From: a virus
IMG/VR virus record: IMGVR_UViG_3300046787_000316
Location: 64,001 to 128,000 of that record
Direction: 5' to 3' (one strand)
DNA: 64,000 nt
The notes beneath the pieces were generated by a model. The model had not been told where the DNA came from and ran no database searches. It saw only the letters and a program-made list of their open reading frames with translations. Below, one piece after another: positions 3,401 through 29,775 of this stretch. The stretch's first letter is position 1, and every line of letters begins with the position of its first letter. A program made the translations under genes and the position numbers.

Positions 3401-4669
3401 TGCCTTGGTTGCATTTTTAATATTATTCCAAGCCCCTTTTCTTTCAGAAGATTGTGGGTTATTTGTAGAGTCTAAAGTTTTCTTATCATCATCCGATAAT
3501 TCACTCTTAGCTTTATCTAATTTTTGTTTAATTTCGGCATCCTTCTCATTACCTTTAGGCATTTCTGCTTTAGATTTTAATTCAGAACCACTTAGTTTTT
3601 GTGGATTTGGTAATTCAGGTTCGGATGGAGTTTCCCCATTACCTTTATCTGCTTTACCTTGAGCCGTTTGGTCTTTCTTAACGGGTTGACCGGGTGCAGC
3701 TGGCTTAGCCGCTTGAGTAGCTGCTTTACCTTTTTGTGCATTTGGTTCGTTAGCAGGCGCATCATCCGGTCCTACCATTTTTTTAGCCTGAATATGAGCA
3801 GGATGTTCTTTTGCTAAACGTAATGCTCCTCTAACTGTAATCTTTTTCTTCTTACCATCGGATGCCGTATAATCAAATTCCTTATCCATTATAGGATTAC
3901 CACCATCAGCTTCTGTAAAATAATTTTTAACGAATTGTTCAAATATATCTTCAGCGATAGCTCTATCCATTATCTCTCCAATCGGGTCGTATGGTGCTTT
4001 ATTTCCATCAAATGCCTTTTTCTCATCATCTGGATGTTCCGTTTCATGTCGTGTTGGATGTGGCTCAGGTCTTAACGCAGAAGATGGTTCTGTATTTATA
4101 GATTCATTTAATTTACCTGTTATCATATTGAATATATCTTTATCAAATTTTGGATATGCTTTTAAAAATCCTTTCTTTTTTGCTTCATCATCCCCATTAC
4201 CTAACCAACTACGAACATCAGTTCCGCTAATTGCGTTGGTTTCAGCGGGCACTGGATACACATAACCTATTTCACCATACCCATATCCCGTCTTACCATT
4301 ATATGGTTTAAAATACTTCCCAGCCAATCTATCAGCATCTTTTTGTCCAACGGCTGCAATGTATGCCGTAGTTTTATCATCAAATTTACTTAAAATTTCT
4401 TTTGGAGCGTATGGGTTACTAACATTTACTATTTTGTTTGAAGGTATCCCAAACATCTTAGTCATAATTTTTACCTTTTCATTGAAATTGAATGGTGATT
4501 TATCATTATTTGTTACATTTGATGTACCAATATACACATTGTTAGCACCAAATTTTGATGCCAATTTTTGGTATGTTTTATAATGCCCTTGATGGAAGGG
4601 TTGAAATCGACCAGCATATACTACTATGGTCTTTTTAACTTGCGGTTTGTCTGCTTCTTTCAAATTCAT
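497..4669 (-). CDS. Multidomain polyprotein: HxGH nucleotidyltransferase + Gly/Ala hydrophobic segment + HExxH metallopeptidase + small domains + C-terminal KxDG ligase-like (DUF6267-like) domain
   Basis: YAGRFQPFHQGH at N-terminus; IAHEMVH; DIEFTKHFFDRVNDPRN; GGAYGHMSHPF...TREKTDGQAL. Confidence 0.75.
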   Translation of the reverse strand: MNLKEADKPQVKKTIVVYAGRFQPFHQGHYKTYQKLASKFGANNVYIGTSNVTNNDKSPFNFNEKVKIMTKMFGIPSNKIVNVSNPYAPKEILSKFDDKTTAYIAAVGQKDADRLAGKYFKPYNGKTGYGYGEIGYVYPVPAETNAISGTDVRSWLGNGDDEAKKKGFLKAYPKFDKDIFNMITGKLNESINTEPSSALRPEPHPTRHETEHPDDEKKAFDGNKAPYDPIGEIMDRAIAEDIFEQFVKNYFTEADGGNPIMDKEFDYTASDGKKKKITVRGALRLAKEHPAHIQAKKMVGPDDAPANEPNAQKGKAATQAAKPAAPGQPVKKDQTAQGKADKGNGETPSEPELPNPQKLSGSELKSKAEMPKGNEKDAEIKQKLDKAKSELSDDDKKTLDSTNNPQSSERKGAWNNIKNATKAFGKGVIHWAHHQKEAWGGTADAVKALANGQKIGSTKNKETGEWEYSDETRKKQIGAMKTAATTTGLLLGSMALGGAGVAAAKAIMGGQAVASAGGAALHGAAGAFTHGVGGFGLHLLKDIGKHATLEAMGLGAGSAAGVGAGLSTATGGLLEGINGMEDYQTISANVIKSALKKMETYQMTDEQMLESIESYKKQKPQQDAQQLMQGINENLSDTKQNSIQHFVEYATKRLKLAETPKVTLVGGREFAEVKTSLGGYSPETKEIYVATEGRLTADILRTIAHEMVHRKQDEMGLVTDSEKDGADGSDIENKAHAVAGILMREYGRINKQIYNEDINLDVDKGDTLLMGKFKNKKVTVKDIGVDDHGMPTINGKKATTFRIPRAEEKNNTNEVHNEDWHYKAIKKMYDRASSFTRKKIAAVVTKNPNSSWDKIAKELRYSDYEEVTDYTDALGLAEMAQSNLNQIEKYADSQMSPEDIEFTKHFFDRVNDPRNGKEISDAELTGFFKRLAKHKKEFTDFINKYKEIVVTDSRSDINIPFVKSANKVIAKTIMRKGDFKSSAPKMVNEGLLLEGGAYGHMSHPFDDMDLTFGDLKNIIKGALTGKLELTREKTDGQALAISWKNGRLIAARNKGHLANAGANAMGIEDVAAKFGGRGGLTDAYNYAMKDLTAAISGLSKAQKDKIFKEGQCFMNLEVIWPTSVNVIPYGQPLLVFHNTTCYDEKGVAIGADQSAATILAGMIKQTNGHVQSKYTIQGPPVTELPKNEVLDSKQSQYLSRLSKLQSEFGLKDSDGVDAYHTAWWGNFIDKKAPIKVDKLTKDALIRRWGFYDKSFRLNTISDPTLQKWAVDNDKVNVAKQQKDNIRPFEEIFLGVGADVLSFMGSVLTANPDTAVRSMKDKLKSVSAQVRTAGNPAQIDKLKKELARLQSIGGIDKIVPNEGIVFVYKGNTYKLTGTFAPLNQILGIFYE

Positions 4670-5679: not shown

Positions 5680-5798
5680 TAAAAGTTTTTATATACGAAC
5701 GGGTCTCTTTTTTTAAGTTCCTCTAATTTCTTTTTAATTCGTTTTTTCATTTTATAGGCATCATACCATTTTATGAAAAGTTTAATTGGATTTATCAT
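5679..5798 (-). CDS. 39-aa basic small protein
   Basis: MINPIKLFIKWYDAYKMKKRIKKKLEELKKRDPFVYKNF; fills the gap exactly, with ATGA and TAATG start/stop overlaps on both sides. Confidence 0.75.
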   Translation of the reverse strand: MINPIKLFIKWYDAYKMKKRIKKKLEELKKRDPFVYKNF

Positions 5799-7234
5799 AA
5801 TATTGATTTTGTTAATTTTGGTATTAGATTATCTTTATCTGTTAATTTTAAAAAATGATAATGGTCTAATGATATTTTTTTACTACCAATATCGTACATC
5901 AATGCTTTGTTGTGTAAAATATTTGGTAACATCTTAGTAACCATTTGTTTTAATTCATCTATACTATAACTATTTAATCTGGTAATTTCATCGAAAATCA
6001 TTTGCAATCTCTTAGTTGGATTTGGCTCTGAATCATATCTCTCATCTATTAATGGATGAAACGTTTTAAATCCAAACTCATTTTTTAAGAATTTTAAAGA
6101 ATTAGCCGGTCCAATTAGTATAAATGGATGCCCATGTACAATTGGTTTCCATATTTTCTCCGAAAGATATCCACTTTCCTCATAAAATAATGTTTCCGAT
6201 ACTATTGATATCAATGAATTCAAATATAGTTCTTTATTTTCAAATCCATACCCCCACACATTTCCAATATCGGCATAATCTACTATCTTTGGCGAAGTAG
6301 ATTGAATATATTTTATAAATTCGGTATATTCGTTCTTTTCCAATTTCATAGATAAATCAGCAAGAGCAGGTGGTGTCATCAATTCATAATCATAACTAAC
6401 TAAGTTATCTTCTAACATATTCTGCTTCCATAGATAATATAATACTTCCAATCTATGTACTCTAATACGTCTATTTAAGTTATTAAATTTATATTTCTTA
6501 TTACTAAAGTCCGATACCTCATCTTCTAATAGAAAATTGTAAGATGTTTGCTTATGGTCATCTTTCCAAAAATGATAATCATCTTTATTCAATTTTTTAA
6601 AATATTCCTCTGCCTTTGAATTCAATGACCAACAGAAATGAATCAACTTTGGCATATTATCACCAAATATTGGCTTCATCATACTTTCTAAATTGAAATC
6701 GTTGTGGCAAATGATTATCTTATTAAATGGAATGTTTAAATCCAATAAACATTTATATAATTTGATTAGTTGGTATTTACTTATATTACCATCTATAACG
6801 TAATTTATAGTAAGAGTTCCACCCCAATCTCTAATTTCTTCCAAAGTTTTCGATGGAATTAATTTACTGAATGGTATATTGTTAGAAAATCTGTCTAAAC
6901 CTAAGAAGTTTGCAATATCCCCATAAGGTTCTATTAGATAATACCATTCGTAATAATTACCACGTTCTCTATCACGTATTACACTATGTACAGAACGAGT
7001 TTCTATTCCAAAATACCCAGGGTTTCCCATTTCATCATTTAATTGAACATTGAATCTTGCATTGAATACCGGCCATACCGATTTTAATTTATCAGTAAAG
7101 AAGTGTTCGGATGAATCAAAATGCCAATCAGTTTGATATGCGAATTCTAAAAATTTAGGATTAAGACAATTGGGAACTTCGTTATATGGAAATAACACAT
7201 CGTATGCAACTATTATCTTTTCAGTATTATTCAT
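5795..7234 (-). CDS. Putative glycosyltransferase, GT10/fucosyltransferase-like C-terminal region
   Basis: LNRRIRVHR, ISIVSETLFYEESGYLSEKIWKPIVHGHPFI, GFKTF; paralogue of 13142..14461. Confidence 0.45.
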   Translation of the reverse strand: MNNTEKIIVAYDVLFPYNEVPNCLNPKFLEFAYQTDWHFDSSEHFFTDKLKSVWPVFNARFNVQLNDEMGNPGYFGIETRSVHSVIRDRERGNYYEWYYLIEPYGDIANFLGLDRFSNNIPFSKLIPSKTLEEIRDWGGTLTINYVIDGNISKYQLIKLYKCLLDLNIPFNKIIICHNDFNLESMMKPIFGDNMPKLIHFCWSLNSKAEEYFKKLNKDDYHFWKDDHKQTSYNFLLEDEVSDFSNKKYKFNNLNRRIRVHRLEVLYYLWKQNMLEDNLVSYDYELMTPPALADLSMKLEKNEYTEFIKYIQSTSPKIVDYADIGNVWGYGFENKELYLNSLISIVSETLFYEESGYLSEKIWKPIVHGHPFILIGPANSLKFLKNEFGFKTFHPLIDERYDSEPNPTKRLQMIFDEITRLNSYSIDELKQMVTKMLPNILHNKALMYDIGSKKISLDHYHFLKLTDKDNLIPKLTKSIL

Positions 7235-7853
7235 TTATTGTAATCTTCAATGCGTAGAATTTAGAATCTCTAATCCATCCAAATCGGTCACACGCTATGA
7301 GTTCTATATTGTATTCATCACCTGCTACATTCTTTACATCATCGGGAGTAATTCCACCTAAGTTTCCTATGAGAATTATAACTCCATCTTTTTTCAAATA
7401 CTTACTTGCATTTTCAAAGAATTCTTGGTGTAAATACATATCCTCATCCAAAGACATCAATTCTTCTTGTATACTTGGATATCCACCAACCCTTGGAGAA
7501 GCGTAATGTGGTGGATTTATTATAATCGTATCAAATTTCATATTGGGCAAATTACTAAACCCATCGGATTGAATAAATTGCGTATTAGTCAATTCATTAT
7601 GTGATATTGTTTTTTCAATAAATGATGCGTTTTGACCATTTATATCAACCAAAACCAATTCATCAGCCATTCCTTTAAAATTGAGATAAAATCCCATAAA
7701 TCCTGGACCGGAACACATTTCTAATATAGTACCCTTTTTAATTGATTCAGCAACAACTTCATGTTTCAATGAATTTATACCAAAAGTAGTTCCACCGCCA
7801 TCGAATTCTATATCATAAAAAATCTTCTTACCTTCTATTGTAAATTGCTTCAT
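7227..7853 (-). CDS. Class I SAM methyltransferase (HemK/RsmC-like, NPPH motif)
   Basis: LEMCSGPGFMG (motif I), LVDIN, SDGF, IIINPPHY (motif IV). Confidence 0.8.
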   Translation of the reverse strand: MKQFTIEGKKIFYDIEFDGGGTTFGINSLKHEVVAESIKKGTILEMCSGPGFMGFYLNFKGMADELVLVDINGQNASFIEKTISHNELTNTQFIQSDGFSNLPNMKFDTIIINPPHYASPRVGGYPSIQEELMSLDEDMYLHQEFFENASKYLKKDGVIILIGNLGGITPDDVKNVAGDEYNIELIACDRFGWIRDSKFYALKITINE

Positions 7854-7856
7854 ATC

Positions 7857-8396
7857 TTAAACGTAATATAATTCAGGGTATTCAACTATGCAATGGATAC
7901 CACCATTACTATATGCGTTTGAATAAATTGTTTCAATATCTTTCCACTCCTTCAAATCATAAAATTCAATATTCTTACACAATGATTTGAATTCATTAAA
8001 ATAATTTCCTTTATGTTGATGGCCGGGGTCAAGCGGAGTATCCGAACCTTTTCCCAATCTGATTATAATATTTACCGTATTACCAGTCATCAATTCATAT
8101 TTATCCAAATGATTTACCAACTGATTTGTTGCTGATATTAGGAAATCCCATCGTGGGTAAAATGTAATAACTGTCTTGCCAGTCATAGCCATTCCCAAAC
8201 TCATTCCCATTTGAGTTTCCTCCATAACAGGTACCTCAATCATCTTCTCCTTTGGGACTTCTCCCAAAGTTGTACTCATTGGATTACCAGCGTAGATAAT
8301 TTGCTGTCCAATAAAAATTGTATCATCTTTACTAGCCAAATTAGTCATAGCATTGGTTAATGCATCCTTATATGGTGAATATTGTGGTGTACTCAT
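7857..8396 (-). CDS. TPP-dependent enzyme, E1-beta/transketolase pyrimidine-binding domain only
   Basis: IFIGQQI, IEVPVMEETQMGMSLGMAMTG, DFLISATNQLVN, GHQH; 179 aa, no C-terminal domain. Confidence 0.8.
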   Translation of the reverse strand: MSTPQYSPYKDALTNAMTNLASKDDTIFIGQQIIYAGNPMSTTLGEVPKEKMIEVPVMEETQMGMSLGMAMTGKTVITFYPRWDFLISATNQLVNHLDKYELMTGNTVNIIIRLGKGSDTPLDPGHQHKGNYFNEFKSLCKNIEFYDLKEWKDIETIYSNAYSNGGIHCIVEYPELYYV

Positions 8397-9388
8397 TATG
8401 GTCTTGAGTTTGGATTATATAAATGTTTATTAGCCTTATACCACTCTATGGTTTCTTTAAGAGCTTCTTTTAAATTTCTTTTTGGTTTCCAACCTAAATC
8501 ATTAATCTTTTTGGATGATAGTAATCTGATAGGAATCATTGGTGCTTTATTGTTCACATATTCGATTGGATTCGTATTACCATCCAATTCCTTAATCGTA
8601 TTCAACGTTTCGTTTACTGTGAATCCTTCTCCGTAACAAACATTAAAGATATCGTATGTATCACAATTTTCTGCTACGAAAATAAAACCATCTGCCATAT
8701 CTTCAACATGTAGTAAATCTCTCACTTCTGTTCCATCTCCCCAAACAGGTATTGGATTTAACCCATCGGCTACTTTACGAATATTCGCAGGTGTAACGTG
8801 GCACTTTTCAAAATCAAACTTATCATTTGGTCCAAATGCGTTTGAAGGTCTAACAATCAAACATTGCATTGGTTCGTGAATCTGATTAGAAAAGAAATCA
8901 CATAACATCTCACCATATCTCTTCATACCACCAACTGCTTTATAAACCGGCAACAATGGAGTTGCATGAACGTTAATATCTTCAACACAAAATTCAGTTC
9001 CCATATCTGGGTATGTTGTATTTGATGATATAAATAAAAATTTACGAACTTTGTTTTTCCAACTTTGTTCCATTAAATTAGTATTCATCTCTACGTTTGG
9101 AGTAACGTGTAATAATGGATTAAATTTGGTATCCAATGCGTTTGAAGTGTTTGCTGCGCAATGGAATACTACATCCACATCTTTTGTAATTTTTTCACAA
9201 AACTCTGCATTTTGTAAATTTCCTACAATGTGTTCTACATTTTCAGTTCCTTCAAAATCGTTTCTTAAACCTCTACTAAATGAAGTTGAACGTAGATTTG
9301 TATATCCTTTTTGATGTAACAATCTTAAAAGATGTGAACCAATGAATCCACTTGCTCCCGTAACTAAAATCTTATCTGTCTTTTTCAT
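8396..9388 (-). CDS. NAD(P)-dependent epimerase/reductase, GDP-L-fucose synthase-like extended SDR
   Basis: VTGASGFIG, VRPSNAFGPNDKF, HVTPANIRK, VWGDGTEVRDLLHVED; YxxxK reads VGGMK. Confidence 0.85.
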   Translation of the reverse strand: MKKTDKILVTGASGFIGSHLLRLLHQKGYTNLRSTSFSRGLRNDFEGTENVEHIVGNLQNAEFCEKITKDVDVVFHCAANTSNALDTKFNPLLHVTPNVEMNTNLMEQSWKNKVRKFLFISSNTTYPDMGTEFCVEDINVHATPLLPVYKAVGGMKRYGEMLCDFFSNQIHEPMQCLIVRPSNAFGPNDKFDFEKCHVTPANIRKVADGLNPIPVWGDGTEVRDLLHVEDMADGFIFVAENCDTYDIFNVCYGEGFTVNETLNTIKELDGNTNPIEYVNNKAPMIPIRLLSSKKINDLGWKPKRNLKEALKETIEWYKANKHLYNPNSRP

Positions 9389-9408
9389 ATTTAATTATTT
9401 GTAATCAA

Positions 9409-9440
9409 TAAAGATACAACATTTTTTTGTAATTAACAAA
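9409..9440 (-). promoter_or_regulatory. Bacteroidota sigma70-type promoter
   Basis: Coding strand TTTG-N20-TATCTTTA upstream of the 9388 start. Confidence 0.7.
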
Positions 9441-10077
9441 AATTTATGTAACAAAATCTATTATAATTTTTAACTTTTTCAACTGCGTGAAATGGATTGT
9501 GTTTTGTAAAATCTAATATAGCAACATTTCCAAAAATAGGTTTAACTATATTTGTATGTTCTATTATTAACTCACCACCATTACCCTCAATATAATTGTG
9601 GGTTAGATATATTAATATAACACAATTTGGCTTGTTTTCAGAATACGATGCATCTTGATGATTAATTAAGTAGCAGCCATCGTTATACATAGTTAGTTGT
9701 GATGAACCTTTGAATTCCGAATCGTAGAATGTTTTAAATATAGTTTCAGCCAATTTAGCCGATTCATTTATATATTTAGGATAATCGAAGTACCAAATTT
9801 GGTCAACTGAATTATCCACACCATTGGTATAATTTTCTAATATATCATTCTTAATGATTTCCAACTCATCAAATGGTGCATCTAATATAGATGATTTGTA
9901 TGGCGATTTCTTATTCAATTCTATAATAGAATTTCTCAAATTACGAAAAGATGAAGGTTTCAATGTTTCAATTGGAAACAATTTTTCTAATTTAAGAAAT
10001 AAATCGTTATTTAATTCACTTAAATGAAATGAAACGTATCCTTTATTGAATAATTCGTTTTTTAAAACAGATTCCAT
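9433..10077 (-). CDS. 2OG-Fe(II) oxygenase (prolyl-hydroxylase-like)
   Basis: YNDGCYLINHQD (HxD), GGEL, PFHAVEKV, NRFCYINF. Confidence 0.8.
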   Translation of the reverse strand: MESVLKNELFNKGYVSFHLSELNNDLFLKLEKLFPIETLKPSSFRNLRNSIIELNKKSPYKSSILDAPFDELEIIKNDILENYTNGVDNSVDQIWYFDYPKYINESAKLAETIFKTFYDSEFKGSSQLTMYNDGCYLINHQDASYSENKPNCVILIYLTHNYIEGNGGELIIEHTNIVKPIFGNVAILDFTKHNPFHAVEKVKNYNRFCYINFC

Positions 10078-11147
10078 TGTGATATTATATTTTTTGTGAA
10101 TATTTTATACATTCTAGCCGATACGTGTCCCAATGGACACCCATCATTATATAGTTCAATCAATTTATCTTCGGTATATTCCCCATCTACTCTTTGCTCC
10201 ATAAATAATGAATTATTGTAGTTGGTATCTCTATTGGAATCATTTATATCATAATTACGAATTGCCCATTCAATTACTCCACCAAATTTATGAATACCCT
10301 CTTCTTCATAAAACCAAAACGTATTCCAATCTACCATATTATAGTAATATTCCAAATATGGATTTTTAAAATAGCTCATAGAGTCATTATAGGTGTTTGG
10401 TATGTATTTGTTTTTTATAATTTCATACATTTCGTTATGCGGCGAATTCTCTGGCTTAAACATTGGGAATCCTCCACCATTTATACAATTTAAAACGTAT
10501 GTATCTGAAAAGTTATTAGATATGTTGAACATCTTATATTTTATACCATTTGATTTAAAATACATTTGTAACATAATGATTGTTTCTAAAAATACAAGCA
10601 ATCTCTCTTCATACGAATGATAGTGTCCTAAGTTTAAATAAGCAAATTCTCTCATAGGATTTTTAACATGCTCCATTCCGAATCCACCTGATAGGAAATA
10701 GTATCCGTTTTCACCAATACTATTTTTTTCTTCTACGAAATCATTAATATGCGCATAATCATCATCCCACCTCTTACCATGCTGTGGTAGTTTTAGTTTT
10801 GGATTTTCATTTATCTTTGATGGTGACACAAAATAACTATTTCTATAAAAAGATGACCATTGTACTATAACCGAAATATCAGATGTATCAATTCCTTCTT
10901 TTTTTAATTTTTCGATTTTGTAAATTATATTTCTAGCTATTACTTGATTATCGTTTGTAACATTTCCCAAATTTATAACTTTCAATTCAGGGTTTGCTTC
11001 TTGAATTTGATGTGCGTAATAATTAAATTCATTCGAATGAGAATGCCTTGCCATATCATCTTCTTCCATAAAATTATCAGCGGTTACATCGATATTAATT
11101 CGACCTGCTCGTGTGAATGAGCAACCATTTGTAATTAAATATTTCAT
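10062..11147 (-). CDS. SGNH/GDSL-like protein
   Basis: ITNGCSFT, NDNQVI, VQWS, C-terminal GHVS. Confidence 0.65.
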   Translation of the reverse strand: MKYLITNGCSFTRAGRINIDVTADNFMEEDDMARHSHSNEFNYYAHQIQEANPELKVINLGNVTNDNQVIARNIIYKIEKLKKEGIDTSDISVIVQWSSFYRNSYFVSPSKINENPKLKLPQHGKRWDDDYAHINDFVEEKNSIGENGYYFLSGGFGMEHVKNPMREFAYLNLGHYHSYEERLLVFLETIIMLQMYFKSNGIKYKMFNISNNFSDTYVLNCINGGGFPMFKPENSPHNEMYEIIKNKYIPNTYNDSMSYFKNPYLEYYYNMVDWNTFWFYEEEGIHKFGGVIEWAIRNYDINDSNRDTNYNNSLFMEQRVDGEYTEDKLIELYNDGCPLGHVSARMYKIFTKNIISQWNLF

Positions 11148-12154
11148 AAGAATTTTGGTTTTAAAATATCAAAATAAAACTTTCTCCACATTAACGTAGA
11201 TGGGTGTCCATACGATTTATCATTGAAGTAATTCTTAATATCCGTATCTGACATAAATTCCATTTCAAAATAGATATTTTTACTTAAATTTAAACCACTA
11301 TCATCTACAATGTTCTCATCCCAATTACCCAAAGTCCATTCCAATGCTCCCCCACATTTGTGATATCCATCTATCTGATAATACCAAAAATCATTTTCAA
11401 AATCTATTAAATCTATTAAATAATTAATATATGGGTTATCCATAAACATACCGGCTTCCCAATTTTCTCCAACCAATTTATATTTAAGTAAGTTTGGTCC
11501 AAAATCTATAACCGGCTCTTGTGTTCTGTTATTTAAGTTATCGTATGTAGAAAATGAATTGGATGTGATATTATTATTCATTTGAAAATATTTGTATTTT
11601 ATTCCCAAACTTTTACAGAATGATGACATCATAATTATATTCTTCAACCAAGATATTATACGTTCTTCGTTTGAGTATTGATGTGCAAAATAATTAAACG
11701 TTATATCATTTAGTTTATCCAAATTATCGGTGCGATTGTATCCACCAGTTAGATATTTGAAACCATGTTCATACGGATATCGTTTTTCTGAAATGAAATC
11801 ATTGGTATGTATCCTATTAGTCATCTCACTACGGCTTACCATATATTTTGGTATATAGAATGAATTTCTACTCAATGCAGACCACTGTATTATAACTTCA
11901 ATATCAGTTGGGTTAATACCATCTTTCATTAATTTACTAATGGCATACATAACACTTTCAACAATTGTACTATTATCATTTGTAGGGCAACCATAGTTAT
12001 GAACTTTATAGTTATCCGATTCGTAATATTGTATCCACTCTACCCAAGTCCAACTTTCCATATTTTTATCAAACAATGGATACTCCGTTGGCATGTCGAT
12101 ATTTGGTTTTACTAAATTAGTAAAAGAACATCCAGATGTTACGAGGTGTTTCAT
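11144..12154 (-). CDS. SGNH/GDSL-like protein (tandem paralogue)
   Basis: VTSGCSFT, TNDNSTI, IQWSALSR, GHPS; similar throughout to 10062..11147. Confidence 0.65.
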   Translation of the reverse strand: MKHLVTSGCSFTNLVKPNIDMPTEYPLFDKNMESWTWVEWIQYYESDNYKVHNYGCPTNDNSTIVESVMYAISKLMKDGINPTDIEVIIQWSALSRNSFYIPKYMVSRSEMTNRIHTNDFISEKRYPYEHGFKYLTGGYNRTDNLDKLNDITFNYFAHQYSNEERIISWLKNIIMMSSFCKSLGIKYKYFQMNNNITSNSFSTYDNLNNRTQEPVIDFGPNLLKYKLVGENWEAGMFMDNPYINYLIDLIDFENDFWYYQIDGYHKCGGALEWTLGNWDENIVDDSGLNLSKNIYFEMEFMSDTDIKNYFNDKSYGHPSTLMWRKFYFDILKPKFL

Positions 12155-13152
12155 TACAATTTACTTTTATATGCTAATATTGATTTTGTAAGTCCTTCTT
12201 TCAAAGTAGTTTGTGGCAAAATACCATATTTGGTTTGTTTTTTAGAACCTAAACATCTAATGGCATCTCCATTTGTTTTAGTTTCATCCCACACTATATT
12301 TTTCTCTATCCCACTTATTTCTTTATATGCTTCAACGATAGTTTCAATTGTTTCTTTAATTGTAACTGCTTCGCCACATCCAAAATTGATTATGTCCTTA
12401 ACTTCCTTTTTAACAACATCGATAGTCGCTTGAGCTACATCATCTCCAAATACAAAATCTCTTTTAGAAGAACCATTTCCCCAACAAATCATATCATCTC
12501 CTTCTACATTAAATAACTTCCATATATTAGAACTAATTACAGTAGCATCTTGAGCAAAATTATCATTTGTGCCATAGATGTTAGATGGGCGTATTACAGT
12601 CCAATTATCCCATCCGTATTGAATCCTAAGCGAATCTAACGTAAGTTCTCCCATACGTTTTGTCCAACCTGGATGCCAATCTAATCGAGATGGAGTTGAT
12701 GCCCAAGTTTCTTCTTGTGACCAAATATCTTCTTCGTGCATTACATCGGCTGGCGAATATACACCAACTGATGAAAGATATACAAACCAATCAACTTTTG
12801 CATCAAATGATGCTTTAATCATATTGGTATTAAACATCAACATTGGGAATAAATAATCAGCAGGTTGCGTTGATGAACGAGCGGGTGAACCTTTTACTCC
12901 AGCAATATGTAATACTATATCAATCTTCTCATTTTCGAATAATTGTTCACAATGTGAAAGATATGTTAAATCTGTTTGAACTAATATCAATCTATCTAAA
13001 CCATATTTAGATTGTAGTTCTCTCAATGATTCGCCGATTTTTAAATCAACTGCCATTACATTAGAACCTTCTTCTAAACACTTTTCAATTGTTGGTAATC
13101 CAACCAACCCATTTGCTCCCGTTACTAAAACGTTTTTGCCTTTAAATTCCAT
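12154..13152 (-). CDS. NAD(P)-dependent epimerase/reductase, GDP-L-fucose synthase-like extended SDR
   Basis: VTGANGLVG, IRPSNIYGTNDNF, CWGNGSSKRDFVFGDD; YxxxK reads PGWTK. Confidence 0.85.
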   Translation of the reverse strand: MEFKGKNVLVTGANGLVGLPTIEKCLEEGSNVMAVDLKIGESLRELQSKYGLDRLILVQTDLTYLSHCEQLFENEKIDIVLHIAGVKGSPARSSTQPADYLFPMLMFNTNMIKASFDAKVDWFVYLSSVGVYSPADVMHEEDIWSQEETWASTPSRLDWHPGWTKRMGELTLDSLRIQYGWDNWTVIRPSNIYGTNDNFAQDATVISSNIWKLFNVEGDDMICWGNGSSKRDFVFGDDVAQATIDVVKKEVKDIINFGCGEAVTIKETIETIVEAYKEISGIEKNIVWDETKTNGDAIRCLGSKKQTKYGILPQTTLKEGLTKSILAYKSKL

Positions 13153-14461
13153 AATTTTTTATTTTTTGTAAACTATTTTCAAATACATCATACTTTGTAA
13201 AACTTAATAGATGATTCCTATTATATATACATATATTTTTCAATTCTAATAGTAGTTGATTTAGTTCAGTTATATCGAATTGAGATATACGAAGTATTTC
13301 ATCGCATACCATTTTAAATCGTTTTTGAGAATTAGTTTCATTATCATATTCCTCATTTATATAAGGTGAGAATGTTTTAAATCCTAATTCTTGCATTATT
13401 TTTAAATGTCCATTTGAAGAAAATACAATGAAAGGTTGTAAATTAATAATTGGATGAAATGTTTTTTCCGAAAGGAATACTCTGTTATTTGTAAATGTAG
13501 TTTCAGTTACAATGTTAATAGCAGATTCCATATACAATGGCTTATAGTATATTTCGGAAGTTCTGAATTCAGATATGTTAATACGTTTATCCAAAAATTG
13601 AGTATCCAACTCCATTGGTATTTTATTAAAAAAAATGGAATCATACTCCATATATGACTGCGCATCTACTTTCGAAAGCACCTCATTTAATTCATCTACA
13701 TTTTTAGGATTGTGGCATACTAAGAAACTAAAATTACCAATATCCCATAGATTATTTTTTTCTAAAAATAAACCCAATGCATATCGATGTGGTCTATCAA
13801 CGTGTCTATTCATTGAAATAAAGTGTTTTTGTTTTTTAGTATCAAATACACTATGGTCTACTATTTCGGTAGTAAATTCAACTTGATTAGATTTATATGT
13901 TTTATTTCTTAATAATAGTTTTAAAGATTGTGCAGTATTTGCCAAAAAGAAATGGTCTGATATATAATTTATATTAGAATTTGTTGGAATATTGTTTGCG
14001 CTTGTTAATATAAAGAAATTAGATGGATTTATGTTGTTATCTCTACAAAATGTTTCTATTTGATTATTAAAAACAACATCGTATAAAGGTTCACCAAACC
14101 AATTAAATATTACCTTTAGTTGATTCGATTTTAACCTATCCAACACATTATCGGATATATTATTTATAAATTCATTATTGTAATATGGAACAGGTGTGTA
14201 TGATTCGCATATATAATACAATACATCATCTGATATATCGGTGGTTTGTAAATTATGTTTAAATACATACCCAGTTGATAATGTGCCAGAAAATTTATTA
14301 GTTCTACGTTCTCTTAAAAAAGAATCCCAATTGTAATCTATTGAGCATAACGTATTGTATTCATCTAATTCAATTTTGGAAAGGTTGTTTGGAAGTATTC
14401 TACCAAATTTATCTACATTTTCAAAGTAGAATTTAAAAGGCAATCCATTTACCTGTTCCAT
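13142..14461 (-). CDS. Putative glycosyltransferase, GT10-like (paralogue of 5795..7234)
   Basis: MNRHVDRPHR, INIVTETTF...FLSEKTFHPIINLQPFI, GFKTF. Confidence 0.45.
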   Translation of the reverse strand: MEQVNGLPFKFYFENVDKFGRILPNNLSKIELDEYNTLCSIDYNWDSFLRERRTNKFSGTLSTGYVFKHNLQTTDISDDVLYYICESYTPVPYYNNEFINNISDNVLDRLKSNQLKVIFNWFGEPLYDVVFNNQIETFCRDNNINPSNFFILTSANNIPTNSNINYISDHFFLANTAQSLKLLLRNKTYKSNQVEFTTEIVDHSVFDTKKQKHFISMNRHVDRPHRYALGLFLEKNNLWDIGNFSFLVCHNPKNVDELNEVLSKVDAQSYMEYDSIFFNKIPMELDTQFLDKRINISEFRTSEIYYKPLYMESAINIVTETTFTNNRVFLSEKTFHPIINLQPFIVFSSNGHLKIMQELGFKTFSPYINEEYDNETNSQKRFKMVCDEILRISQFDITELNQLLLELKNICIYNRNHLLSFTKYDVFENSLQKIKNYGI

Positions 14462-15062
14462 AATGTGGGAATTTTGATTTATAGTTGTAATATATTACAT
14501 CCGATGGTATTTCTCTTTTTGTATTCCAAGTTGCTTCCGTTGGTGTATAAGTTGAAACATTATTATCTTCTACTACGAAATATAAAGGTAAGTCAAAGTT
14601 TTTAGCATACTTATGTACTTCATAAAATATACCACTTTCAAAACTCATATCACCTACAAAACACCAAACTTTTTCATCACTACCACTATCTTTTAAAGAT
14701 TTGGCAACACCCAATGCAATTGAAAGAGTTCCACCAACAATTGCCGATGAATATAATTTTTCATCCGAATTGCATAATGTGATTGATTTTCCTTTAAGGA
14801 TTTCATCTTCAATCCAAATTGGACAAACACCTTTAAGTAATGCATGATAATGCGAACGCCAAGTTGAAAACACCCAATCGGTTGATTTTATTCTTTTGAA
14901 TATTTCAATCAATTGCTCTTCATTTCCTTCCGATAAATGAATGGGGCCCCTAATCTTTGCATCTTCCCAATGCTTCACAATCATTTCTTCAAAATTGATT
15001 AAATCTTCCGAAGTGTATTCCACATCATTTACAATTGGATACTTATCGATATTCTGTATCAT
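14433..15062 (-). CDS. TPP-dependent enzyme, short E1-alpha-like subunit
   Basis: GPIHLSEGNEE, STWRSHYHAL, SSAIVGG, FVGDMSFESG...VVEDNN (TPP/Mg motif); 209 aa. Confidence 0.85.
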   Translation of the reverse strand: MIQNIDKYPIVNDVEYTSEDLINFEEMIVKHWEDAKIRGPIHLSEGNEEQLIEIFKRIKSTDWVFSTWRSHYHALLKGVCPIWIEDEILKGKSITLCNSDEKLYSSAIVGGTLSIALGVAKSLKDSGSDEKVWCFVGDMSFESGIFYEVHKYAKNFDLPLYFVVEDNNVSTYTPTEATWNTKREIPSDVIYYNYKSKFPHYGTGKWIAF

Positions 15063-15811
15063 ATTAGTTTTATTTCAGTTAACTTATTATATATTCGCTG
15101 TGCTACTTCCTTATGCCCTTCGATGGATAAATGTGGGTCTGGCACTGGACAATTTGGTATATCCATTATTCTCATTTCATTATTACTAGCCCATGCTCCC
15201 AAATTATCACCATCAAATTTTATAAAATTATTTGCTTCATTAAATTGAGTTGGATTACCATCATACGAAAGCCATAATGTATCTATACCTTTTGATTTTA
15301 ACCATAAATCATACATCTCAATATCTCTAATTAAATTATTCACAACATCGGTTTCATTGTAAATATATGATAAGTAATTAGTATAGTACTCATGTAATGG
15401 TTTGTATGCGTAGTTTCCTAAAAATGGTGGTTCTGAAAATTCAGTTCTATTTAATTTTATAAACTCATTTGTAAAATCATAATAAACGTGCTGTCTAGTA
15501 AACATTGTCAACTGTCCTATCATTAAAACACGTTGAGTTGGTTTTGGATTTGAAAAGTATTTATAAATTTTTCTAAAAATCAAATCATTAGATGACATCG
15601 ATTCGGCAGTATTTATAAACTTACATCCGAATAAATTAGCCAAATATACTATGTAATTATTATCTTTTTTAAATTTTATAGTATCAGGATGCATGAACCC
15701 AATACTATCATCATTTATATTATTTATAAATTTATAAACGTTTGGATTATCCAGTCCACCACCTTCGGTAAAACTACAACCAAATCCTACTATTAAATCG
15801 TATTGCTTCAT
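15059..15811 (-). CDS. SGNH/GDSL-like protein
   Basis: FGCSFTEGGG, SNDLIFRK, DPHLSIEGHKEVA. Confidence 0.7.
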   Translation of the reverse strand: MKQYDLIVGFGCSFTEGGGLDNPNVYKFINNINDDSIGFMHPDTIKFKKDNNYIVYLANLFGCKFINTAESMSSNDLIFRKIYKYFSNPKPTQRVLMIGQLTMFTRQHVYYDFTNEFIKLNRTEFSEPPFLGNYAYKPLHEYYTNYLSYIYNETDVVNNLIRDIEMYDLWLKSKGIDTLWLSYDGNPTQFNEANNFIKFDGDNLGAWASNNEMRIMDIPNCPVPDPHLSIEGHKEVAQRIYNKLTEIKLI

Positions 15812-16353
15812 CTATCTCTTTTTTGTAATATGGGATTGGTGGTAGGCCATTCCATTTGATATTCCGGGTCGTTCCATTTAATTACACCTTGCTCATTTGC
15901 ATCTATATATTCTCCATTGTAAAATAAATTGTAATGAAACATACAATCGGTAAGTGCATAGTGACCATTTGCAAACCCAGGAGGAACTAATACCTGTTGC
16001 CTGTTACGTTCGGATATGATAAATGATTCCCAATCCCCAAAGGTAGGCGAACCTTCTCTTACATCCAAAACAATGAGGTATATTTCCCCAACAACGGCTT
16101 GGACTAACTTCCAAGTTTTAGTATCATAGTGTAATCCTCGTAATACGTTTTTGTAGGAACGAGAGAATCTACCGTGAATACTAATTTCTGATTTATCATA
16201 GTGAATATGATTCATTACTGGATGTTCCTCACTATGAAATGTAGTAAATATTTCACCCCTATATTCTCTGTAAATAGATGGGGTAAAAATAGGTACTTCG
16301 TACTCAAATATTTTTGATGGAGTTTCTATAAACTCATTCCATTTATTACTCAT
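15808..16353 (-). CDS. rmlC: dTDP-4-dehydrorhamnose 3,5-epimerase family protein
   Basis: YREYRG, SRSYKNVLRGLHY, KLVQAVVGEI, VLVPPGFANGHYAL, IKWNDP. Confidence 0.9.
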   Translation of the reverse strand: MSNKWNEFIETPSKIFEYEVPIFTPSIYREYRGEIFTTFHSEEHPVMNHIHYDKSEISIHGRFSRSYKNVLRGLHYDTKTWKLVQAVVGEIYLIVLDVREGSPTFGDWESFIISERNRQQVLVPPGFANGHYALTDCMFHYNLFYNGEYIDANEQGVIKWNDPEYQMEWPTTNPILQKRDR

Positions 16354-16354
16354 A

Positions 16355-17326
16355 CTATGTATTTTTTGCGTATCCTAATGGGAATCCGTTTCTAAACTCT
16401 GCTCCCATCTTAGGAACAATCATTTGGTAGGCTTGAATTAATTCAGTTATACCCTTATCCAAATTCCAATGTGCTCTCCATCCAGTCGCTTCTATTTTAG
16501 CGTTCGATACAATGTAATCTCTTTTATCAGGGTCCTCATAAAAGTCGTTGTATGATACCGCAAAATCCTTTACATGAGATTGTATCTTTTCTAATAACTC
16601 TTGCTTTGATAAATTGGCAGAACTTAATCCTACGTTAAATACTTCACCTTTGTAAGTATCATATCTATCTAACATAAACATAAACACATTTGCTACATCC
16701 CTAATATGAATAAAGTTTCGTTTGAAATTCTTTTCAAATACAACAATGTATTTATCGGTAATTGCTTTGTAAACAAAATCGTTTACTAATAAGTCGGTTC
16801 TCATTCTTGGCGATACACCAAACACAGTTGCTAATCGGAATATAATAGCATCTGTTTCTTTTAATAATAAATTTTCAGCTTCGCACTTTGTTTTACCATA
16901 AACTGAAATAGGGTTTAGTGGTGATTCTTCCGTACATTCCGTTTGTCCTTCGCCTATTCCATATCCACTATTAGTATTTGGATATAATATTTTTTTACCA
17001 GTCCCCTTTGTGAATCTAACAATATTTTCAATTTGTGTATAATTTACATCCAATGCCAACTGCGGGTCGGCATCGCAAGCAGGGAATCCTACAATAGCTG
17101 CTAATGGAATAATAGCATCCGCTTCATTACAACACTTTTCCAATAATGTCGTATTACGGACATCTCCATAAATGAATTTGAATTTAGTTGTAAATGTATA
17201 TTGTAATAACGATGTTTGATTGAATAATAATTTATCCAAAACAGTCACATGGTGTCCTTCATCTAATAACCTACCAACTATAACCGAGCCTAAGTATCCA
17301 GCTCCTCCTGTTATCAATACTTTCAT
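16355..17326 (-). CDS. NAD-dependent epimerase/dehydratase (extended SDR)
   Basis: ITGGAGYLG, LAAIVG, YGKTK (intact YxxxK), RLATVFGVSPRMRTDL, RNFIHIRD. Confidence 0.9.
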   Translation of the reverse strand: MKVLITGGAGYLGSVIVGRLLDEGHHVTVLDKLLFNQTSLLQYTFTTKFKFIYGDVRNTTLLEKCCNEADAIIPLAAIVGFPACDADPQLALDVNYTQIENIVRFTKGTGKKILYPNTNSGYGIGEGQTECTEESPLNPISVYGKTKCEAENLLLKETDAIIFRLATVFGVSPRMRTDLLVNDFVYKAITDKYIVVFEKNFKRNFIHIRDVANVFMFMLDRYDTYKGEVFNVGLSSANLSKQELLEKIQSHVKDFAVSYNDFYEDPDKRDYIVSNAKIEATGWRAHWNLDKGITELIQAYQMIVPKMGAEFRNGFPLGYAKNT

Positions 17327-17327
17327 A

Positions 17328-18062
17328 TTATAATTTTTCTAAATCTTTACAAAATTTCATTAAGTGGTTGTTGTTACCTGTCATGTCCCAAAACTTATAA
17401 TCAGTTTCGTTTTCAAAATTAAAACAACATAATAATCCTAACTCACTTTTATCAACTAATTGAAATCCATGTTTATTTTTAGTTACAAGATTTGGTAAGT
17501 TTTTTCTGAAATCATTAACAACCGAGCCATCTAATTTTTTATTAGAAACTATAAAGAAATCACTATAACATTCTTGCGACCAACTAAAATCTCCCTTAGT
17601 ATCAGCTGAACCTATAAAGTATGGTGCGTTAACATAATCTCTTAACTTACCACCCAATGTTTCGGAATATACTAATTCATCATCAATCCATAATTCATAA
17701 GTAAACGTATCCCCATCCCAATTTAATGTAAATAAATGTGGTTCTGCCCAAAATTCTTCATCTTTATAGAACAAAATCTTATCGGCATATTTTTCTACCT
17801 CATCTTCCACATACCAAAAATTCAACATTAACATATCGGGTTTTCTATAAACGATTCCCGTATGTAATCCTCTTCTCATAAAGATTCCAGCCATATCATC
17901 TATTTTGGAATCATCTTCTCCTCGTTTCCAAGTTCCACTAATAGTCCAACTTGATTCATTCATTACATAAAAAGCAGATGTATCAATAATCCCATAGGCG
18001 TTATGTGGCCACCAAGGCAAATCTGCTAATATCAATGGTTCTTTGTGTTTTATTTTGTACAT
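17328..18062 (-). CDS. Concanavalin A/LamG-like lectin domain protein
   Basis: SWTISGTW, HLFTLNWDG...LWIDDEL, FIGS, C-terminal WDMTGNNNH. Confidence 0.55.
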   Translation of the reverse strand: MYKIKHKEPLILADLPWWPHNAYGIIDTSAFYVMNESSWTISGTWKRGEDDSKIDDMAGIFMRRGLHTGIVYRKPDMLMLNFWYVEDEVEKYADKILFYKDEEFWAEPHLFTLNWDGDTFTYELWIDDELVYSETLGGKLRDYVNAPYFIGSADTKGDFSWSQECYSDFFIVSNKKLDGSVVNDFRKNLPNLVTKNKHGFQLVDKSELGLLCCFNFENETDYKFWDMTGNNNHLMKFCKDLEKL

Positions 18063-19462
18063 TATAACTGTATTTCTTTTGTGAAATTATAAAATTCTTC
18101 TAATTCTGGGAATGTTTTACAAAAATCCGTTCCTCTTCTTTTGTCGTGTTCACTAAAGAATTTGTGGAAATTATATCTAGCTTTATGCAACTCCCCATTA
18201 TCAATTGGAGATATCGACCAATCGTATGTTCTTTTCAATTTTTGTATTTCTAAATCGGAATACCCAACGTATCCTTTTGAATAATATGGAATCCCATAAT
18301 AAAATGCTAATTGAGCTTGGTCAAATATATTTTGCTTAAATTGATGTGGTAGGATTTGTACCGTTTGATGACGAGGATGTCTTAGATATGATGTATCTAA
18401 TAATACAGGCGATAACCAATATCTATCATCTCCAGCATACTCTCTCTTCAAATCATACACTCCTTTAATTAATTTATCAAAACTGAATACTGATAACATA
18501 TTGTATGTTACCATAAATGTAATAGTGATTCTCGGAACTTCTCTTAAAATTCTATTTACATTATTCCAAAAACGATTAAACTCTAATCCGTTACGGATAT
18601 ATTCAGCTTGCTCTCCCCAACCATCACACGAAGTAAATAACACAAATCCCTTTACTTTATCTTCTTCTGTAATTCTTTTTAATTTTTCGATTAATTTAGT
18701 TATAAGCTCATCGCTAACTCCTAAATTGGAATTGATTGAGAAATCTAAATTTTTATTAGGATTTGGTTCATCAATTATATAATCCAAAACTTTCCAAGTA
18801 TCCTTTGATAACAATGGCTCTCCACCAGTTATTCTAAAAGTATGCAAATCTCTATACAAATCCGGCCACCATTTCCAAAATGCTTCTACATAAGGATTAT
18901 GTTCTCTATGTGGAATTGGCATCTTTTGTTCAGCTGCAAGATGTTTTAAATCATTGAAATTATCAGTTGTATTATACCCACCATGTTGCTGAATCTCTTC
19001 CATCCATTTAGATGAAAAAGTAGGTGAACAATATGAACAAGCAAAATTACAAATGTTTGAGAATGCAACCTCTACATATCTTGGATTAAAATCATCTCTC
19101 CAATTTGAATTTTTAATGGTTTCGAAATCAGGCCAAGACCAATCTTCGGATGATTTGAAAATTCTATCCGAATATAAATCCGAATTATCCTCAACTCCCC
19201 AACAATAATCACATTCCGTTGGCCTCGCACCGGACATCATTTCTTTTCTTTTCTGCTTCTTAAATAAAGTATTATGAAGTGCAGATGGGTTTCTAGCAAT
19301 CTCTGCTTCGGATACTTTGTGAGTATTAGGGTGGTGACAACTATGATTGTGACCGGTGTGTAAGTGAGTTGTAACTTGCGTCCATTTCGCTAAACACATT
19401 CCTTTACCAATGCCATCTAATGAATTTTTTACTTCTTCGTAAAGTGGTTTTTTATACGCCAT
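18062..19462 (-). CDS. Radical SAM protein with N-terminal twitch/SPASM-like Cys cluster
   Basis: CNFACSYC (CxxxCxxC), ITGGEPLL, N-terminal CLAKW...SCHH...CDYCW. Confidence 0.9.
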   Translation of the reverse strand: MAYKKPLYEEVKNSLDGIGKGMCLAKWTQVTTHLHTGHNHSCHHPNTHKVSEAEIARNPSALHNTLFKKQKRKEMMSGARPTECDYCWGVEDNSDLYSDRIFKSSEDWSWPDFETIKNSNWRDDFNPRYVEVAFSNICNFACSYCSPTFSSKWMEEIQQHGGYNTTDNFNDLKHLAAEQKMPIPHREHNPYVEAFWKWWPDLYRDLHTFRITGGEPLLSKDTWKVLDYIIDEPNPNKNLDFSINSNLGVSDELITKLIEKLKRITEEDKVKGFVLFTSCDGWGEQAEYIRNGLEFNRFWNNVNRILREVPRITITFMVTYNMLSVFSFDKLIKGVYDLKREYAGDDRYWLSPVLLDTSYLRHPRHQTVQILPHQFKQNIFDQAQLAFYYGIPYYSKGYVGYSDLEIQKLKRTYDWSISPIDNGELHKARYNFHKFFSEHDKRRGTDFCKTFPELEEFYNFTKEIQL

Positions 19463-22482: not shown

Positions 22483-22504
22483 TAGTGTTTAATTATTTAT
22501 ATTA

Positions 22505-29714: not shown

Positions 29715-29775
29715 AAACTAACCATATTTATATATAGAAAACTAATGAATACTTTATAAAACTAAAGAAAACTAA
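29715..29775 (+). repeat. Four AAACTAA direct repeats (putative RHH operator)
   Basis: Copies start at 29715, 29739, 29759 and 29769, immediately upstream of the RHH ORF. Confidence 0.6.
29724..29731 (+). promoter_or_regulatory. Putative ATATTTAT promoter motif for the plus-strand gene
   Basis: Motif appears on the plus strand here, matching gene orientation. Confidence 0.45.

Follow-up and report, generated by a model that had tools for sequence, protein, structure and literature searches.

A minimal two-chain thiamine diphosphate enzyme in a GDP-heptose tailoring locus of a phage: a candidate sugar-branching carboligase

Introduction

The nearest known enzymes to the pair of proteins described here, an E1-alpha-like and an E1-beta-like chain of a phage-encoded thiamine diphosphate (ThDP) enzyme, are the alphaKADH2 pairs: AviB1/AviB2 of avilamycin, Plm8/Plm9 of paulomycin, those of aldgamycin and kosinostatin, and KbDH of kibdelomycin. 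They are expected to transfer a pyruvate-derived C2 acyl anion to a sugar ketone, giving a tertiary alpha-hydroxy ketone; C2 addition has been demonstrated by genetics in the cases of avilamycin, aldgamycin and paulomycin, and with KbDH-alpha/beta in vitro (PMC12247030, PMC4802897). According to a 2025 review they are known mainly from specialised natural products, and there is no structure of any alphaKADH2 branching enzyme (PMC12247030). The genes analysed here lie in a 64,000-nucleotide stretch (the window; positions 64,001 to 128,000 of IMG/VR record IMGVR_UViG_3300046787_000316), a T4-like myophage segment of low GC content (~31%) with all genes on the minus strand. The whole record has 137 kb and is ~73% complete, and absences from the record are judged within that. 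It probably represents a large oceanic phage with a SAR11 host.

Like the alphaKADH2 enzymes, the window pair is a two-subunit E1-type ThDP enzyme without E2 or E3, and it is encoded among enzymes that make keto-nucleotide sugars: a short-chain dehydrogenase/reductase (SDR323) and an epimerase lie beside alpha in 46-49 of the 51 loci with full flanks among the 80 related IMG/VR phage loci that we compared. Unlike them, it is minimal (209 + 179 aa), consists of cofactor-binding cores without the beta C-terminal domain, and occurs in GDP-heptose surface-glycan loci of SAR11, the candidate phyla radiation (CPR), DPANN archaea and phages, not in dTDP-deoxysugar antibiotic clusters. The comparison of the minimal family with AviB, Plm and KbDH is one of descriptions; its standing as a separate clade was established against a sample of full-length E1 alphas. 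By analogy, we propose for the pair the mode of action of alphaKADH2 branching enzymes, and do not claim membership of that group. No description of the minimal alpha/beta family was found in the literature.

A second precedent is YerE, which acts in the synthesis of yersiniose A and related branched sugars of lipopolysaccharide (LPS) and shares with our proposal the reaction type, a 4-keto nucleotide sugar and a cell-surface glycan as destination. YerE is typically followed by a dehydrogenase, YerF, that reduces the new side-chain ketone. It is a single-chain enzyme of the decarboxylase superfamily (TPP_enzyme_N/M/C) acting on a CDP-3,6-dideoxy-4-keto sugar, whereas the window pair is built from E1_dh and Transket_pyr domains and matches TPP_enzyme_C at 7.5e-4, below the cut-off of that model. 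A YerE-like enzyme of 559 aa adjoins alpha/beta in SAR11 loci and, since the two occur side by side, they are not interchangeable there.

The third point of comparison is the E1 component of the pyruvate (PDH), branched-chain 2-oxo acid (BCKDH) and acetoin dehydrogenases. The window pair shares with it the diphosphate-binding (PP) and PYR folds, the ThDP motif and the activating Glu, and its best sequence and fold matches are to E1 (1NI4, 1OLX, 3EXE_B and 1QS0_B). Unlike heterotetrameric E1, it has neither the C-terminal part of alpha nor the domain by which beta binds E2, and none of the partners of the complex.

Results and discussion

Two truncated E1-type subunits

14433-15062, minus strand: alpha (P0001, 209 aa), a minimal E1-alpha-like PP domain with ThDP motif G137-D138...E165-x-N167
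7857-8396, minus strand: beta (P0002, 179 aa), an E1-beta-like protein reduced to the PYR domain, with Glu59 as the cofactor-activating residue and with His96 and His128 conserved

Alpha matches Pfam E1_dh (4.8e-13, profile positions 6-175 of 300) and the PDH E1 alpha model TIGR03182 (3.6e-23); its match to DXP_synthase_N is weaker (1e-6). The ThDP motif, GDMSFESG...EDNN, corresponds to the E1 pattern GDG-x(24-27)-NN. Among 36 diverse homologues H42, G118, G137, D138, N167 and H200 are invariant, and R69, H71 and E165 are kept in at least 90%. When the minimal alpha family was aligned with full-length E1 alpha (hhalign, probability 100%), residues 26-203 of 341 were covered; the C-terminal 40% of E1 alpha, the region of the catalytic His and the regulatory loop, is missing.

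The sole Pfam match of beta is Transket_pyr (PF02779, 1.2e-6). It also matches the E1 beta model PRK09212 (4e-10) and NF006667, in each case over positions 6-133 of 327, and has no Transketolase_C domain. In E1 beta, this C-terminal domain docks E2. Glu59 aligns with the conserved CEQ Glu of BCKDH E1 beta, and E59, H96 and H128 are invariant among 22 homologues. Open reading frames (ORFs) and profiles thus agree with the initial annotation, which had described a 209-aa E1-alpha-like gene and a 179-aa PYR-only beta gene 6 kb apart. It had also reported no E2 or E3 genes in the window, and this extends to the whole record, where the E2 catalytic (PF00198), lipoyl (PF00364) and E3 dimerisation (PF02852) domains were not found.

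More than 6000 homologues of alpha (sequence clusters at 90% identity) were detected. Nearly all of the best 120 are exactly 209 aa long, and among the 150 best representatives most full-length rows have ~195-220 aa. Because the same truncated lengths recur among homologues, the truncated architecture appears to be a functional minimal form and not the product of decay. The stripped-down architecture is that of a large cellular and viral family and was not devised by the phage. In a phylogenetic tree the minimal alphas form a single clade, separate from the full-length E1 alphas sampled, within which the phage alpha clade (SH-aLRT 99) groups with the SAR11 clade (89). This grouping would fit an exchange with the presumed host.

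Among metagenomic alpha homologues such as P0136 and P0153, some contain intein or homing-endonuclease domains (Hint, LAGLIDADG), and in others alpha is joined to an FkbM methyltransferase, LicD, GT2 or radical S-adenosylmethionine (SAM) domain.

Alpha and beta are partners

The two genes lie on the same strand, 6.0 kb apart. Beta is downstream of alpha in 45 of the 51 loci; over all 80 loci it is found on the same strand and downstream, at a distance of 6 bp to 9.3 kb, with one exception, whose best match to beta is ~2.9 kb upstream of where alpha ends. In ~35 cellular loci beta follows alpha directly, the genomes being those of Pelagibacter/SAR11, Patescibacteria (CPR), Woesearchaeota and other DPANN archaea, and likewise of Rhabdochlamydiaceae (Chlamydiota), Chloroflexota, Omnitrophota and Actinomycetota. 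A single ORF of 380-400 aa encodes both halves in cyanophages S-SM2 and P-TIM68. PHROG 34187 (phrog_34187) represents this fused form, alpha mapping to positions 4-200 and beta to 237-400, and metagenomes hold hundreds of similar fusions; the window beta shares 42% identity with the C-terminal half of such a protein (P0124). An AlphaFold2 model of a natural fused form is confident overall, with a pLDDT of 84 and a pTM of 0.87, but has pLDDT below 50 across much of residues 171-225. Superposition of the modelled PYR half on E1 beta gives 1.9-2.3 Å, and the likeness of the whole chain to transketolase (TK) and 1-deoxyxylulose-5-phosphate synthase (DXS) is at the superfamily level only (TMq 0.36-0.60).

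Because they are adjacent in cellular genomes, fused in cyanophages and found in the same downstream order in related phages, alpha and beta can be taken as the PP and PYR halves of one heteromeric minimal ThDP enzyme. The number of homologues, the fixed length of 209 aa and the position of beta in the 51 loci argue against a chance finding. Since the gap between the genes in related phages ranges so widely, the 6-kb split is a secondary, lineage-specific insertion; the initial annotation had described the enzyme as split, and the adjacent and fused forms show that this is no trait of the enzyme itself.

9433-12154, minus strand: variable block between alpha and beta, holding two SGNH-like genes and a 2-oxoglutarate (2OG)-Fe(II) oxygenase

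In window-like relatives a block of glycosyltransferase, SDR, SGNH-like and oxygenase genes sits between alpha and beta. The genes of the variable block, among them the oxygenase (Pfam 2OG-FeII_Oxy_3, 5e-7), were found in just 12-28 of the 80 loci and are absent from compact phage cassettes (L076, L078, L081 and L064), whose order is C4 dehydrogenase, epimerase, alpha, beta. Within the flanks of these cassettes there is no further homologue of the three SDRs of the window, and a Pfam search of the main flanking ORFs of L081 gave no SDR. Promoter and terminator scans over the window operon returned matches at chance level and indicated no transcription break between alpha and beta.

The pair stands in a GDP-heptose pathway

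16355-17326, minus strand: SDR323, probable GDP-heptose C4 dehydrogenase (58% identity, E 1.5e-101, to PDB 6VO6/6VO8)
15808-16353, minus strand: cupin epimerase of the GDP-D-glycero-4-keto-heptose 3,5-/3-epimerase type, by its PDB matches
8396-9388, minus strand: SDR330, a GDP-sugar SDR that abuts beta, its stop overlapping the beta start
12154-13152, minus strand: SDR332, a second GDP-fucose-synthase-like SDR, one gene from alpha, with the motif P-G-W-x-K and without the catalytic Tyr

SDR323 is the probable maker of a 4-keto acceptor. Its structural match 6VO6 we take to be Cj1427, the GDP-heptose C4 dehydrogenase of Campylobacter jejuni, an identity that literature text searches did not confirm. 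SDR323 is present in 49 of the 51 phage loci, and orthologues ~50% identical to it lie beside alpha/beta in 14 cellular loci. The function of Cj1427 itself has been described (PMC10680097). The cupin, found in 46 of the 51 loci, has its best PDB matches in 7AN4, 7ANG, 8DCO, 8DB5 and 7M14 (E ~1e-41, compared with 4e-25 for dTDP RmlC), and its closest structural relatives are the Campylobacter GDP-D-glycero-4-keto-D-lyxo-heptose 3,5- and 3-epimerases; 7AN4 and 7ANG are the DdahB/MlghB structures (PMC7949155). On the strength of these two sets of matches we assign the pathway to GDP-heptose tailoring in a 4-keto context. An NDP-4-keto-6-deoxysugar had been named as the acceptor to assay; a 4-keto-sugar pathway is indeed present, but the matches of SDR323 and the cupin point to a GDP-heptose and not to a 6-deoxyhexose. 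A 3-deoxy sugar is not expected either, since there is no pyridoxal phosphate-dependent C3-dehydratase; no DegT enzyme was found in the phage record.

Each subunit gene was correctly placed near a GDP-fucose-synthase-like SDR, and in related phage loci alpha is accompanied by SDR323, as given above, and by SDR332 (44 of the 51 loci). The description of these neighbours as sugar reductases did not survive. In SDR330 the canonical catalytic Tyr is replaced by Val in alignments to 8RDG and MlghC (7ANH), and proteins of its type have Y-x6-K in place of Y-x3-K, the Tyr lying seven residues before the Lys. SDR332 has Pro at the position of the Tyr (type motif P/A-G-W-x-K). The loss is conserved in both subfamilies, which share a G-W-x-K motif and include orthologues from SAR11, Chloroflexota, Omnitrophota, archaea and phages. 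Since the catalytic Tyr is absent, neither is an ordinary reductase. Their nearest relatives are GDP-sugar 4-epimerase 8RDG, GDP-fucose synthase, MlghC and GDP-mannose 3,5-epimerase, and the best NCBIfam model for both is GDP-L-fucose synthase (6e-42 for SDR330 and 9.4e-36 for SDR332, far below its cut-off).

The resemblance to the C. jejuni GDP-heptose pathway (Cj1427/MlghA, Cj1430/MlghB and Cj1428/MlghC) covers SDR323, through its 58% identity to 6VO6, the cupin, whose nearest relatives are its GDP-4-keto-heptose epimerases, and the fold of SDR330 and SDR332, which is nearest to GDP-sugar SDRs including MlghC. The end of the pathway differs. Campylobacter finishes with a C4 reductase that has a Ser-Tyr-Lys triad, and has no ThDP enzyme; here there are Tyr-less SDRs, which do not have that triad, and the ThDP pair. 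In the compact phage relatives the Campylobacter reductase has no counterpart at all.

Around the cellular alpha/beta genes we found a GHMP kinase (18 loci, directly adjoining alpha or beta in ~7) and an NTP-transferase (nine loci), and further SIS isomerases, haloacid dehalogenase (HAD) phosphatases, DegT aminotransferases, B12-radical SAM enzymes and SDRs. The kinase, SIS, HAD and NTP-transferase set is the standard GDP-heptose activation route, to which tailoring is added. No kinase, isomerase or nucleotidyltransferase of the activation families was found in the phage record; alpha/beta is thus kept there only with tailoring enzymes that act at the level of the nucleotide sugar, and the phage presumably draws on GDP-heptose of the host and itself carries only the tailoring steps.

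In four Pelagibacter loci (L091, L092, L099 and L108) three ThDP enzymes stand side by side: the minimal alpha/beta, the 559-aa acetolactate-synthase/YerE-like enzyme and a split transketolase (264 + 303 aa). In S-SM2 (L001), P-TIM68 (L002) and a Verrucomicrobiota metagenome-assembled genome (MAG; L125) the ThDP enzyme adjoins a Zn-dependent alcohol dehydrogenase (Zn-ADH), not an SDR; this dehydrogenase may be an analogous side-chain reductase.

A proposed branching reaction

Compact cassettes without any reductase imply that the ketone is consumed in some other way, and suggest that the ThDP pair consumes the 4-keto group, standing where Campylobacter uses its C4 reductase. On balance we lean towards a model in which the pair adds an acyl anion, probably a pyruvate-derived C2 unit, to a GDP-4-keto-heptose within the tailoring pathway. 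Beyond the compact cassettes, this reading rests on four observations: the cofactor machinery is intact whereas the parts that serve lipoyl and E2 are lost; the constant partners are enzymes that form and epimerize 4-keto sugars; alpha is fused in nature to a GDP-sugar SDR (P0126, an SDR330-type domain at the alpha N-terminus, with 34% identity to the window protein for the SDR and 53% for alpha) and to a GT2 domain (P0125); and the E1 alpha/beta pairs of alphaKADH2 provide the precedent.

The acceptor, the donor, the branching step and the parts played by the atypical SDRs and the glycosyltransferases would, as we infer them, fit together as follows. SDR323 would make GDP-4-keto-heptose and the cupin would epimerize it at C3/C5. 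Alpha/beta would decarboxylate a 2-oxo acid, of which pyruvate is the most likely, and so form an acyl-anion equivalent on ThDP; addition of this equivalent to the C4 ketone would give a 4-C-acyl branched GDP-heptose with a tertiary alcohol. The Tyr-less SDR330 and SDR332, a methyltransferase, the SGNH-like proteins and the oxygenase could then decorate the branched product, before the glycosyltransferases GT439 and GT479 install it on a surface glycan of the host or the virion.

More tentatively, and with somewhat less conviction than doubt, we put forward a wider idea: that the minimal pairs are a new class of ThDP carboligase which stands in for the C4 reductase at the end of GDP-heptose pathways and, with SDR partners, makes 4-C-acyl-branched heptoses. 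The Tyr-less GDP-sugar SDRs, one of which is fused to alpha in P0126, would then physically partner the pair and hold the nucleotide sugar.

Several points weigh against the branching model. The sequence itself does not tell which donor and acceptor are used. PDB 6VO6 is annotated only as a 'putative sugar-nucleotide epimerase/dehydratase', and at 58% identity SDR323 could prefer GDP-mannose. His200 of alpha ('Y-P-H-x-G') cannot be aligned to the E1 catalytic His, as the hhalign alignment ends at template residue 203, and the structural model is poorly confident there. The GHMP kinase, SIS isomerase and Zn-ADH neighbours in cells and cyanophages would also fit a role before nucleotide activation, and in a record that is ~73% complete the absence of a gene is not proof.

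Alternative readings

The pair may be a ThDP enzyme of a glycan pathway that catalyses another reaction and forms no C-branch, for example decarboxylation of a 2-oxo-acid substituent or sugar acid, acyl supply for O- or N-acylation, or breakage of a C-C bond in a keto sugar. The island offers some room for this: three of its proteins are SGNH-like and may handle acyl groups, and it also encodes a 2OG oxygenase and a radical SAM enzyme. The two neighbouring SDRs depart from the usual catalytic pattern, and SAR11 loci with two more ThDP enzymes hint at complex chemistry. However, no acyl carrier, lipoyl or coenzyme A-handling partner is conserved with the pair, its sole constant partners are the enzymes that form and epimerize 4-keto sugars, and every known E1-type sugar enzyme introduces a branch into a keto sugar (PMC12247030). 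We regard a non-branching reaction as unlikely.

The main rival places the pair before nucleotide activation, as a TK/DXS-like chain builder that joins C2 to a sugar phosphate and yields an unusual heptulose or octulose phosphate, which SIS isomerase, GHMP kinase, HAD phosphatase and nucleotidyltransferase would then process. Its logic is comparable to that of LmbR in the lincosamide octose pathway, though with ThDP chemistry. The GHMP kinase of the 18 cellular loci and the SIS, HAD and NTP-transferase genes of several speak for it, as do the fused enzymes of S-SM2 and P-TIM68, which lie between the Zn-ADH and a carbohydrate kinase with a phosphoheptose isomerase and nucleotidyltransferases nearby, and the TK/DXS-like fold of the whole chain. 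Yet that same set of cellular genes is fully accounted for by a GDP-heptose route feeding Cj1427-type enzymes. The phage record has no such kinase, isomerase or nucleotidyltransferase, and its alpha and beta are kept with enzymes acting on nucleotide sugars in a run of overlapping ORFs; the compact cassettes hold only C4 dehydrogenase, epimerase, alpha and beta, and there is the fusion of alpha to a GDP-sugar SDR. Alpha is closer to E1 than to TK in its profile scores, and the pair has no Transketolase_N or Transketolase_C match. A chain-building role before activation seems improbable to us.

Highly improbable is a remnant or auxiliary E1 of pyruvate or acetoin dehydrogenase working with E2/E3 of the host, the auxiliary metabolic gene (AMG) reading invited by the database names 'pyruvate dehydrogenase E1 alpha' and 'TPP-dependent pyruvate/acetoin dehydrogenase', since a beta without its whole C-terminal domain and an alpha without its C-terminal 40%, recurring at the same truncated lengths among the listed homologues, always within sugar operons and here in a record with no E2, lipoyl or E3 genes, make an architecture that already contradicts it. 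The initial annotation had argued against a central-metabolism AMG, and the loss of the parts that serve E2 and lipoyl, the absence of partners and the nucleotide-sugar pathway found in their place bear this out. Phosphonopyruvate or sulfopyruvate decarboxylase, a small split ThDP enzyme of the ComD/ComE kind, was also considered and dropped, the profiles being E1_dh and Transket_pyr and not TPP_enzyme_N/C.

If the branching model is right, an abundant marine-virome gene routinely labelled 'pyruvate dehydrogenase E1 alpha', with its more than 6000 clusters, would be mis-annotated as a central-metabolism AMG, and a seven-carbon sugar with a C-branch would be a product of the very abundant SAR11 bacteria of the ocean and their large phages as well as of many ultra-small bacteria and archaea. 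At ~390 residues, a two-chain ThDP carboligase acting on ketones would be smaller than any other of its kind and a useful biocatalyst scaffold for tertiary alcohols. There would also be a bearing on phage-host recognition, given the position of the island within the host-recognition cluster of pelagimyophages (PMC7029224). Should the wider idea of a carboligase class hold, branched heptoses would be common and unrecognised on SAR11, CPR, DPANN and marine phage-infected cells or virions, and the window pair would be the first viral ThDP sugar-branching enzyme.

Other genes of the sugar island

13142-14461, minus strand: GT439, probable glycosyltransferase with a weak GT10-like lead, its called start overlapping the alpha stop by 29 nt
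5795-7234, minus strand: GT479, a GT439 paralogue downstream of beta and the methyltransferase
7227-7853, minus strand: MT208, a class I SAM methyltransferase (Pfam MTS 1.3e-15) directly after beta
15059-15811, minus strand: SGNH-like protein (GCSFT motif) between epimerase and alpha

The island extends over ~4.7-25.9 kb of the window, its ORFs tightly packed and overlapping, with a tail-fibre gene adjoining. It matches the pelagimyophage 'host recognition cluster', a hypervariable region of tail-fibre and LPS-type genes (PMC7029224). Megablast of the island against GenBank phages gave no match, and a tRNA scan found none.

GT439 has no match in Pfam, PHROG or NCBIfam; its nearest named Atlas clusters are GT10 at 0.78-0.79, which is below threshold and serves as a lead only. 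It is present in 47 of the 51 loci. GT479, for which no family match was obtained either, matches the GT439 positions of related loci at ~28% identity. The C-terminal parts of both look fucosyltransferase-like (ETxF...SEK). In Rhabdochlamydiaceae loci a weak methyltransferase-like gene likewise follows beta. The SGNH-like protein at 15059-15811 has a weak DUF6071 match only, and paralogues at 10062-11147 and 11144-12154; all three start with a block-I-like G-C-S-F-T, have no significant family match and, to judge from this motif, could act as sugar O-acyl esterases or transferases.

Upstream of the heptose genes, 18062-19462 encodes a twitch-domain radical SAM enzyme (NF033640, 2e-104) that is kept in 42 of the 51 loci. 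The gene at 497-4669 encodes a 1390-aa multidomain protein with an N-terminal cytidylyltransferase-like domain (CTP_transf_like, 7.9e-10), the sole nucleotidyltransferase-type domain found in the record. Intergenic TATAAATA boxes resembling T4-type late promoters were seen on the minus strand at 22494-22501, 12 nt upstream of the first small ORF of the glycan operon (start 22482), and at 29725-29732, upstream of the tail-fibre gene (start 29679); the count of the motif over the whole window is at chance level. Two contigs assigned to cellular MAGs have the gene order of the window and an alpha 78-79% identical to its own: a Pelagibacterales contig (L085) with the entire island order, and a Saccharibacteria contig (L086) with a short stretch of epimerase, alpha and a GT439-like gene. 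Both are probably phage contigs that were binned into MAGs.

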